Shown here piece by piece: positions 1,129-1,453 of a DNA stretch of 15,754 bases (within the stretch, counting starts at the first letter, position 1; each line of letters opens with the position of its first letter). Source of the DNA: a virus. Location: the UHGV virus genome UHGV-0069791; one strand, written 5' to 3'. The position numbers and the translations under genes were made by a program. Below the pieces are notes generated by a model. The model was not told the origin of the DNA and did not search any database. It saw only the letters and a list, made by a program, of their open reading frames with translations.

Positions 1129-1249
1129 TACCTGTAAACTTGGTGCAGTACAGTAAACACGCTGGTGGTCGTGAATACTGACCTTTTATCTTGCTGGCTT
1201 TTTAGACAAGAGTTATTGGTATGTCATGTTAACCAGAAGGGAAAAAGAC

Positions 1250-1453
1250 ATGCTAAAACAGCAAGATATGACAGAAACCGCCGCCGCAGTCCTTCATTTC
1301 TTACCTGCTGACAAGTGGGTAACGCCACGCATGATGACGAGAACTACCGGAGTAAGCGAAGCCCGGTGCCAGTTAATACTGACTCAGTTAGTTCTGGCGG
1401 GTCTGGCGAAGGATAACGGCGGGTACGGGAATAAATTCAGACGCTGCCAGTAA
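1250..1453 (+). CDS. Small hypothetical protein (67 aa from ATG 1250; 75 aa from ATG 1226), possible winged-helix DNA-binding protein
   Basis: ORF 1226..1453. The internal ATG at 1250 has the better Shine-Dalgarno-like sequence (AAGGGA about 8 nt upstream). The C-terminal half (VTPRMMTRTTGVSEARCQLILTQLVLAGLAKDNGG) looks like a helix-turn-helix/wing. Directly upstream of the methyltransferase. Confidence 0.45.
   Translation: MLKQQDMTETAAAVLHFLPADKWVTPRMMTRTTGVSEARCQLILTQLVLAGLAKDNGGYGNKFRRCQ

Follow-up and report, generated by a model that had tools for sequence, protein, structure and literature searches.

What does a small gene placed directly in front of an orphan DNA methyltransferase do for that enzyme? 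The question is raised by the window, the 15,754 nucleotides of virus genome UHGV-0069791 analysed here, in which a sequence-only reading had recognised an open reading frame of 67–75 codons directly 5′ of an adenine methyltransferase gene and in the same orientation. This arrangement is confirmed, with both genes on the same strand and a 150-nt spacer between them. The same reading had likened the small protein to PapI/FaeA-type regulators and to the controller proteins of modification genes, and had treated the intergenic region as a possible DNA target. We find that the constant companion of the methyltransferase is an uncatalogued leader RNA, not the small protein.

A three-part cassette in the late operon

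The window corresponds to the region of a lambdoid Escherichia coli prophage from which the late genes are controlled. Positions 1000–2700 are 100% identical to phages PhiR40_1 and PhiR55_1 and 96–99% identical to mEp460, cdtI, Ayreon and SfV. Of 5426 complete E. coli genomes, 1617 contain DNA that matches this region, and cassette-region DNA is also found in Stx2-converting, cdt-converting and serotype-converting phages. The gene for the late antiterminator Q (68–448, + strand, 126 residues) was identified by its matches to Phage_antitermQ (PF06530, E 2e-51) and phrog_79. A candidate late promoter resembling pR′ (1045–1072, + strand; TTTACA, 16 nt, TATGCT) lies where a lambdoid pR′ is expected; it comes from a consensus scan only and matches at 9 of 12 positions. 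It is followed by a promoter-proximal intrinsic terminator resembling tR′ (1109–1131, + strand; GCCGCTGAGCGGT and then a T run), found by a terminator scan. The homologous spot carries annotated terminators in Ayreon and SfV, and the terminator sequence is near-identical in the Stx-type prophage L003. Between Q and the late promoter, a lipoprotein gene in the opposite orientation (533–979, − strand, 148 residues; phrog_3152, E 1e-104) has its own promoter-like site at 998 to 969.

The cassette itself consists of the small gene (1250–1453, + strand), the leader (1466–1603, + strand) and the methyltransferase gene (1604–2656, + strand, 350 residues). A second intrinsic terminator from the same scan (2663–2689, + strand; GGCCACGTCAGGTGGCC and then a T run) closes the module just 5′ of the holin gene and is annotated at the same place in Ayreon and SfV. 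The lysis genes 3′ of it encode a P21-type holin, a DUF1327 protein, an endolysin and Rz.

The methyltransferase is an orphan β-class N6-adenine enzyme of the M.EcoGII type. It matches PF01555 (E 2e-42), has DPPY at residue 35, a central recognition domain and an FxGxG motif (FMGSG at 310), and is 80.9% identical to the methyltransferase of phage 1720a-02, which is very similar to M.EcoGII (Murray et al., PMC5778455). Judged by this family membership, the window enzyme would methylate adenine in any context. M.EcoGII itself methylates adenine non-specifically; the enzyme is silent in the lysogen, and its unregulated expression harms cells (PMC5778455). In every phage group sampled, the enzyme gene sits just before or within the lysis genes.

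A predicted winged-helix protein

The small frame extends mechanically over 1226–1453 on the + strand, giving 75 residues from the first ATG. The conserved start is the ATG at 1250, which gives 67 residues and is preceded by AAGGGA; its anti-Shine-Dalgarno duplex is −5.3 kcal/mol, compared with −2.8 for the ATG at 1226. The upstream alternative reads ACG in relatives, and the 75-residue start was dropped because its ATG is not conserved and its ribosome-binding site is weaker. The deposited records of Ayreon and SfV (orf47) have proteins of 67 and 64 residues, respectively, annotated at the corresponding position. In 19 loci from about 15 genera the frame stays open over 63–67 residues. Across these loci the third codon position varies most (47, 39 and 60 of 62 columns variable at the three positions), and pN/pS is near 0.5, at saturation of the synonymous sites. 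At the protein level, the N-terminal DMTE and the helix 3 stretch RCQLILTQL..AG do not vary, although they are encoded by differing codons; helices 1–2 and the wing are strongly variable.

Two further features of the gene were noted. A stretch that starts in the late promoter region, takes in the terminator and reaches codon 11 (1057–1282) is 81–94% identical in prophages whose small protein is otherwise only about 51% identical, indicating a gene mosaic in which the 5′ end and helix 3 are kept and the middle is swapped. The 5′ untranslated region (1186–1249) contains conserved blocks, CTTGCTG, CAGAGTTA and GTATGTCAC, that are shared with Salmonella and Providencia loci and absent where the small gene is absent; no inverted repeat was found in them.

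A profile search of 1.84 billion representative proteins returned 92 relatives. They are stand-alone proteins of at most 145 residues, apart from two weak matches in proteins of 642 and 1034 residues, and no fusion proteins were found among them. The family is small and phage-restricted. It falls into PHROG 331, a group whose function is given as not known, with E values of 3e-26 for the window protein, 6e-28 for N15 gp51 and 2e-26 for PY54 ORF59; a profile–profile comparison relates the window branch to the N15 branch with 92% probability.

With good confidence, the product is predicted to be a winged-helix protein. An AlphaFold2 model built with a 17-sequence alignment (pLDDT 86.2, pTM 0.72) forms a complete winged helix of H1-S1-H2-H3-S2-wing-S3 topology, with helices at residues 7–17, 26–33 and 37–49, a bridge between the first two, and a β hairpin at 53–55/63–65. 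The HTH/wing-like character that had been assigned by eye to the C-terminal half is borne out by the predicted structure; its restriction to that half is not, as the fold spans the whole protein. The top structural neighbours are nucleic-acid-binding winged helices, including the RNA binders SelB and Zalpha. A BFVD fold search gave generic winged helices only, and PDB sequence searches with the protein and with the family profile as queries gave non-significant matches only. Counted from the sequences, the net charge is +4 with a basic wing, the exposed face of helix 3 is unusually hydrophobic, and the N15 branch of the family is nearly neutral.

Most of the structural neighbours are DNA-binding repressors (TtgV/IclR, ArsR, MarR, TrmBL2), raising the question whether the protein is a DNA-binding transcription factor. 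It would then act on the late promoter-proximal region or on a host gene, and its adjacency to the methyltransferase would reflect a shared insertion-tolerant slot. Sub-threshold Pfam matches to TrmB, MarR_2 and DprA_WH, and the name TrmB-family regulator that NCBI gives to some homologues, agree with this possibility. The Pfam gathering thresholds for TrmB, MarR and DprA_WH are not reached, the best score of the window protein being 14 bits against 27 for MarR_2; the best E values among relatives are 1.6e-6 for DprA_WH (matched by 11 of 17 members) and 5e-4 for TrmB (14 of 17), which indicates superfamily-level similarity only. Moreover, no palindromic operator or other inverted repeat was found 5′ of the gene, either in 1125–1260 of the window or at the equivalent place in four relatives. 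The lambdoid product would also be made only after antitermination, leaving little for a promoter-level regulator to do. We regard a role as transcription factor as doubtful.

Comparison with known small regulators places the protein outside each of their families. PapI and FaeA are likewise winged helices of about 70 residues tied to adenine methylation, but PapI works with Lrp and the host Dam enzyme at paired GATC sites of fimbrial operons, whereas the window gene is a phage late gene beside an enzyme of the non-sequence-specific M.EcoGII family. The proposed kinship finds no support in the Pfam scans, in which the FaeA/PapI profile (PF04703) is absent at E ≤ 1 for the window protein and at E ≤ 0.1 for 17 family members, or in the structural comparison, where PapI is not among the top 60 neighbours. 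Controller proteins are also small proteins of DNA-binding type encoded beside a modification gene; they are Xre-type HTH dimers that bind palindromic C-boxes 5′ of their own gene and time the restriction enzyme, none of which is seen in the window. Pfam scans of the small protein and its relatives gave no match to the Xre-type HTH (PF01381, HTH_3), the upstream palindrome is missing as described above, and there is no restriction gene nearby, the neighbours being Q, the lipoprotein gene, the methyltransferase and the holin. Membership among the controller proteins must accordingly be given up.

Zalpha and other minimal stand-alone winged helices (the N-domains of TrmB, MarR and IclR, and SelB) are 7–24% identical to the window protein in sequence. 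Zalpha domains make their contacts through Asn and Tyr on helix 3 and Pro-Pro-x-Trp in the wing; the window protein, with RCQLILTQLVLAG as helix 3 and KDNGGYGNKFRRCQ as wing, lacks this combination. It has two Cys only and gives no match to PF10122, the Cys4 zinc ribbon of Com. PADLOC and NCBIfam searches with the small protein also gave no match.

The leader RNA of the methyltransferase

No other element of the module is as conserved as the spacer, which is more conserved than the flanking proteins would lead one to expect. Its mean column identity is 76% across 28 loci, in which the flanking proteins are 46–80% identical. Within it lies a leader of about 135 nt (1466–1603) with two domains. 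The first (1468–1535) contains helices P1 (1468–1472/1531–1535), P2 (1475–1480/1516–1521) and H1 (1481–1492/1500–1511), and the second (1545–1580) contains P4 (1545–1548/1577–1580) and hp3 (1552–1558/1565–1571). The near-invariant segments AAUGGGCG, ACCAAGGCCCA and GAGCCUAUCA join and flank the two domains. An imperfect hairpin, CACTGCTTT-AGCGC-AAAGCAGAGTG (1549–1575, + strand), had been picked out in this region by eye. The hairpin is real and corresponds to stem hp3 and its flanks within the larger conserved RNA: all seven of its pairs change on both sides, and 88.9% of the cells of hp3 (helix 5) are paired.

Throughout the leader, stem sequences change with pairing kept, as in GGCUGGUGGGUG/CACCUGCCAGCC versus GACUGUAAAAGUG/CACUCUUACAGUC. 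Among 43 distinct leaders, 89.4% of cells form standard pairs compared with 30–40% in slid controls. Both partners change in 29 of the 34 pairs, giving 261 double-change cells compared with 29–60 in the controls; all these figures are inflated by the fitting of the 43-leader alignment to the model. The same helices are obtained in an unfitted MAFFT alignment and in single-sequence folds, whose z-scores range from −3.0 to −5.3 in five of six sequences and reach −0.8 in the sixth. An alternative long-range pairing between the 5′ UGGGC and a distal GCCCA is 98% pairable, with both sides nearly invariant and so beyond the reach of covariation.

G–U pairs are frequent, which assigns the structure to the + strand RNA. 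The intergenic region, which had been taken as a possible DNA target, behaves as + strand RNA. We also considered the spacer as a DNA palindrome or operator; this is ruled out, since the many G–U pairs are mismatches in duplex symmetry and on the other strand, and the stems change freely.

A covariance model (R1) built from leader sequences scores 168.8 bits in the window, which is one of its training sequences. R1 finds the leader in 62 of 90 methyltransferase-anchored loci, with E values down to 2e-33, and has matches in N15, phiKO2, PY54, VHML, MAR, and Vibrio and Aeromonas phages. The matches are always on the coding strand, and the end of the element is always the next start codon. Rfam 15 contains no model that reaches its gathering score anywhere in the window and none that overlaps 1454–1603 at E ≤ 10; a full-text literature search with conserved leader strings returned unrelated primer-type matches only. 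Taken together, these comparisons identify the spacer as a leader RNA that is widespread, covaries strongly, is absent from Rfam and is specific to M.EcoGII-type phage methyltransferases. It is a concrete new RNA motif with unusually good comparative support.

The ribosome-binding site of the methyltransferase gene is weak or absent. Shine-Dalgarno pairing at the methyltransferase start has a family median of −3.2 kcal/mol, compared with −5.8 kcal/mol for the other genes in these loci (p 3e-5); the window gene has no Shine-Dalgarno sequence (+1.3 kcal/mol). Constant occlusion of the start by the leader was considered and is unsupported: the predicted accessibility of the methyltransferase start is no lower than that of control genes (0.41 versus 0.43, p 0.31). 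The only GATC in 1441–1610 is at 1599–1602, immediately 5′ of the methyltransferase ATG at 1604. This GATC is invariant in 28 of 28 lambdoid-type leaders and absent from N15-type and Vibrio-type leaders.

Pairing of the three elements and a possible role for the small protein

We analysed the association of the three elements in three independent samples, one anchored on each of them. The small-protein sample comprises 117 loci (33 species-level genomes, 80 viral contigs and 4 annotated records). The methyltransferase is the next gene in 106 of them, with a gap of 143–155 nt in nearly all. This pairing spans Proteus, Providencia, Plesiomonas, Mangrovibacter, Kluyvera, Salmonella and others, and holds down to 46% identity of the small protein and 57% of the enzyme to the window. 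Exceptions to the pairing occur at contig ends, in two truncated copies, at one locus that has a leader and no intact enzyme, and in Stx2 prophages. In the leader-anchored sample, a DNA pattern scan checked with the covariance model, the enzyme begins 17–30 nt 3′ of the pattern match in all 55 true leaders, bar one truncated copy. The other 25 pattern matches, which have no methyltransferase, do not match the covariance model and were set aside as chance.

Seen from the methyltransferase, the small protein is present in 33 of the 62 loci with a leader and in 0 of the 28 without (Fisher p 1.5e-7, with no phylogenetic correction); detection in this 90-locus sample was conservative, and some Vibrio homologues fall below the cut-off. 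Among 48 leader–methyltransferase modules with at least 500 nt of upstream sequence, the small ORF is intact in 26, a pseudogene in 1 and absent from 21, E. coli relatives with an enzyme about 80% identical being among those that lack it. The pairing is therefore kept across genera, but not throughout: with the ORF missing in 21 of 48 modules and broken in one, it is an accessory and not a required controller. Loss or damage of the ORF beside a retained enzyme had been named beforehand as evidence against the proposal, and the relatives bear this out in part. The small gene is a frequent but dispensable companion of the methyltransferase module. Leaders with and without the small protein look alike, the H1 loop included. 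In the pseudogene locus (L217), the decaying small gene lies about 300 nt 5′ of the methyltransferase and contains two in-frame stops (helix 3 reads KCQIVLT*L); the leader and methyltransferase 3′ of it are intact.

The dispensability of the gene raises the possibility that it is an independent accessory gene (a moron) that has no functional tie to the methyltransferase and serves, for instance, in anti-defence or host takeover. Its variable helices 1–2 and wing, the small and phage-restricted family, and a weak match to a Ren-like exclusion PHROG (E 0.04) would fit such a role. So would the existence of two subtypes, about 51% identical to each other, that are paired with 97%-identical methyltransferases (window versus SfV). 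PADLOC, however, does not recognise the protein, and its neighbourhood is kept over a wide range. The distant homologues N15 gp51, phiKO2 gp51, PY54 ORF59 and Vibrio ORFs lie 110–210 nt 5′ of the same leader, on the opposite side of the late promoter and terminator. The neighbourhood is thus preserved in lambdoid, N15-like and Vibrio phages at less than 25% protein identity, despite the change in gene order, and in the sampled loci the small protein is never found away from the leader or a leader remnant. We consider an unlinked accessory function unlikely.

The free recombination of the two subtypes against nearly identical enzymes speaks against a further possibility, in which the small protein would bind the methyltransferase as its inhibitor, targeting factor or chaperone instead of regulating its gene. 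Tight linkage and co-expression would be expected of such a partner, and the hydrophobic face of helix 3 and the near-neutral charge of the N15 branch could be read in the same way. Half of the enzymes, however, have no small protein, the family contains no fusions, and the small protein survives in prophages that have lost the enzyme. A physical partnership is the explanation to which we give least credence.

The prophages without the enzyme are Stx2 prophages that keep the small protein and only the 5′ half of the leader. This persistence without a methyltransferase could favour the transcription factor, as could the position of the gene in N15-like and Vibrio phages, where it ends 40–200 nt 5′ of the late promoter; against it, the gene does not occur without at least a leader remnant in the sampled loci. 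In two such prophages (L003, 4197–5242; L004, 4145–5192), a YdeO/GadX-like AraC regulator of 237 residues, three tRNAs and stx2 replace the methyltransferase, and the recombination breakpoint lies inside the leader, past the 3′ arm of P2.

In phage Mu, translation of mom is activated by Com. A Com-like zinc-ribbon ORF separates the leader from the methyltransferase gene in Vibrio phage ST2-1pr, in Aeromonas phage PhAER-5 and in no fewer than 13 other viral contigs. The two ORFs tested with Pfam, those of ST2-1pr and PhAER-5, pass the PF10122 cut-off of 22.9 bits (locus L123, 1331–1468, 26.2 bits; locus L125, 1323–1550, 35.4 bits); the remaining ones (L131–L139, L141, L145, L147 and L173) were identified by an HMM built from these two. 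Several of the Com-like loci, in Vibrio phages, also carry a PHROG 331-like winged-helix ORF further 5′. Com-type control has been proposed for the non-specific adenine methyltransferase genes hin1523 and hia5 (PMC3299994, PMC6483171). Together with the Com-like ORFs in relatives of the window enzyme, this provides a precedent within the family for post-transcriptional control by a small protein encoded upstream.

The window cassette resembles Com–mom of Mu, and Com with Hin1523, Hia5 and Nma1821 in Mu-like prophages, in that a small gene lies 5′ of a harmful, late-expressed DNA-modification enzyme; like Com–mom, it has a structured mRNA leader on the modification gene (PMC3299994, PMC6483171). 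Com, however, is a zinc ribbon (PF10122) whose gene overlaps the enzyme gene, whereas the window protein is a predicted winged helix without Cys4, encoded 150 nt away, and proteins of its type co-occur with Com-like genes in some phages. True homologues are N15 gp51, phiKO2 gp51, PY54 ORF59 and SfV orf47 (PHROG 331), which have the same size and adjoin the same pair of leader and enzyme; the gp51/ORF59 gene of the telomere phages lies 5′ of the late promoter and terminator, whereas the window gene lies 3′.

Based on these observations, we suggest, with a probability of roughly 0.3, that the small protein is a dispensable trans-acting modulator of methyltransferase expression that works via the leader. 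The cassette would consist of an optional small gene, a leader of about 135 nt and an M.EcoGII-type enzyme with a weak or absent ribosome-binding site, placed before the lysis genes. Q would let RNA polymerase pass the promoter-proximal terminator, so that the small gene is read first. Its product would act in trans on the leader transcript, tuning the amount and timing of methyltransferase translation from the long antiterminated late mRNA; the leader would carry the basic control and would work without the small protein too. In function the small protein would parallel Com at mom, with no kinship between the two. What the analysis establishes is the gene, its winged-helix fold, the synteny, the structured RNA and the weak ribosome-binding site; a regulatory role for the small protein, and with it nucleic acid binding, the leader as target and the direction in which it would act, is our inference.

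Within a polycistronic transcript antiterminated by Q, a single gene has to be controlled post-transcriptionally, and the implausibility of controlling one gene of such an operon at the level of transcription is one reason for favouring a modulator that acts via the leader. The winged-helix neighbours that bind nucleic acid, some of them RNA, point the same way, as does the basic wing. The protein is seen only beside the leader (33 of 62 loci versus 0 of 28) and has the methyltransferase next to it in 106 of 117 loci, and this synteny survives rearrangement relative to the promoter and terminator. Retention of the 5′ leader half in Stx2 prophages with the enzyme replaced is consistent with such a link, and the invariance of helix 3 and DMTE over varying codons is as expected for contact with an invariant partner. 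Further arguments are the weak Shine-Dalgarno sequence at the enzyme start, the Com-like precedent in Vibrio and Aeromonas relatives, and the harmfulness of unregulated M.EcoGII (PMC5778455).

Our confidence in the modulator is nonetheless low, because the protein is dispensable (absent in 21 and a pseudogene in 1 of 48 modules), and because the leader is unchanged where the protein is missing and has no feature that depends on it. Co-occurrence with Com-like genes in Vibrio phages indicates that the small protein does not simply replace Com. Helix 3 of the N15 gp51 branch is different and has acidic residues with the invariant leader nucleotides unchanged, which counts against helix 3 reading those nucleotides. 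Occlusion of the start site is also unsupported by the thermodynamic modelling.

A wider proposal, which we would rate as improbable in its entirety, is that the two-domain leader with its near-invariant junctions AAUGGGCG, ACCAAGGCCCA and GAGCCUAUCA represents a new class of cis-regulatory RNA that gates translation of M.EcoGII-type enzymes in many temperate phages from Enterobacterales, Vibrio and Aeromonas. This RNA would have the PHROG 331 protein as a dedicated binding partner, and the protein would be a second solution, unrelated to Com, to the task that Com has at Mu mom. The small protein belongs to an uncharacterised family whose sole consistent neighbour is the leader RNA. Silencing and later release of the enzyme, once understood, would explain the timing of whole-genome adenine methylation relative to host restriction. 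M.EcoGII and Hia5 are in use as tools, and the cassette could supply a compact natural control element.

Rearranged forms of the cassette were also observed. In three N15-like contigs (L162, L185 and L187), the winged-helix slot holds a 78-residue ORF that appears DinI-like by eye only, and an ORF of 81–88 residues that appears coiled-coil-like, again by eye only. One protein cluster (P0017; 72 residues, 303 member sequences) consists of residues 1–62 of the small protein, after which the sequence continues, out of frame, from codon 22 of the methyltransferase gene. It corresponds to an inferred 229-bp deletion (window 1437–1669) between two ATTCAG repeats, at 1435 and 1664, by which the leader and the methyltransferase start are lost.
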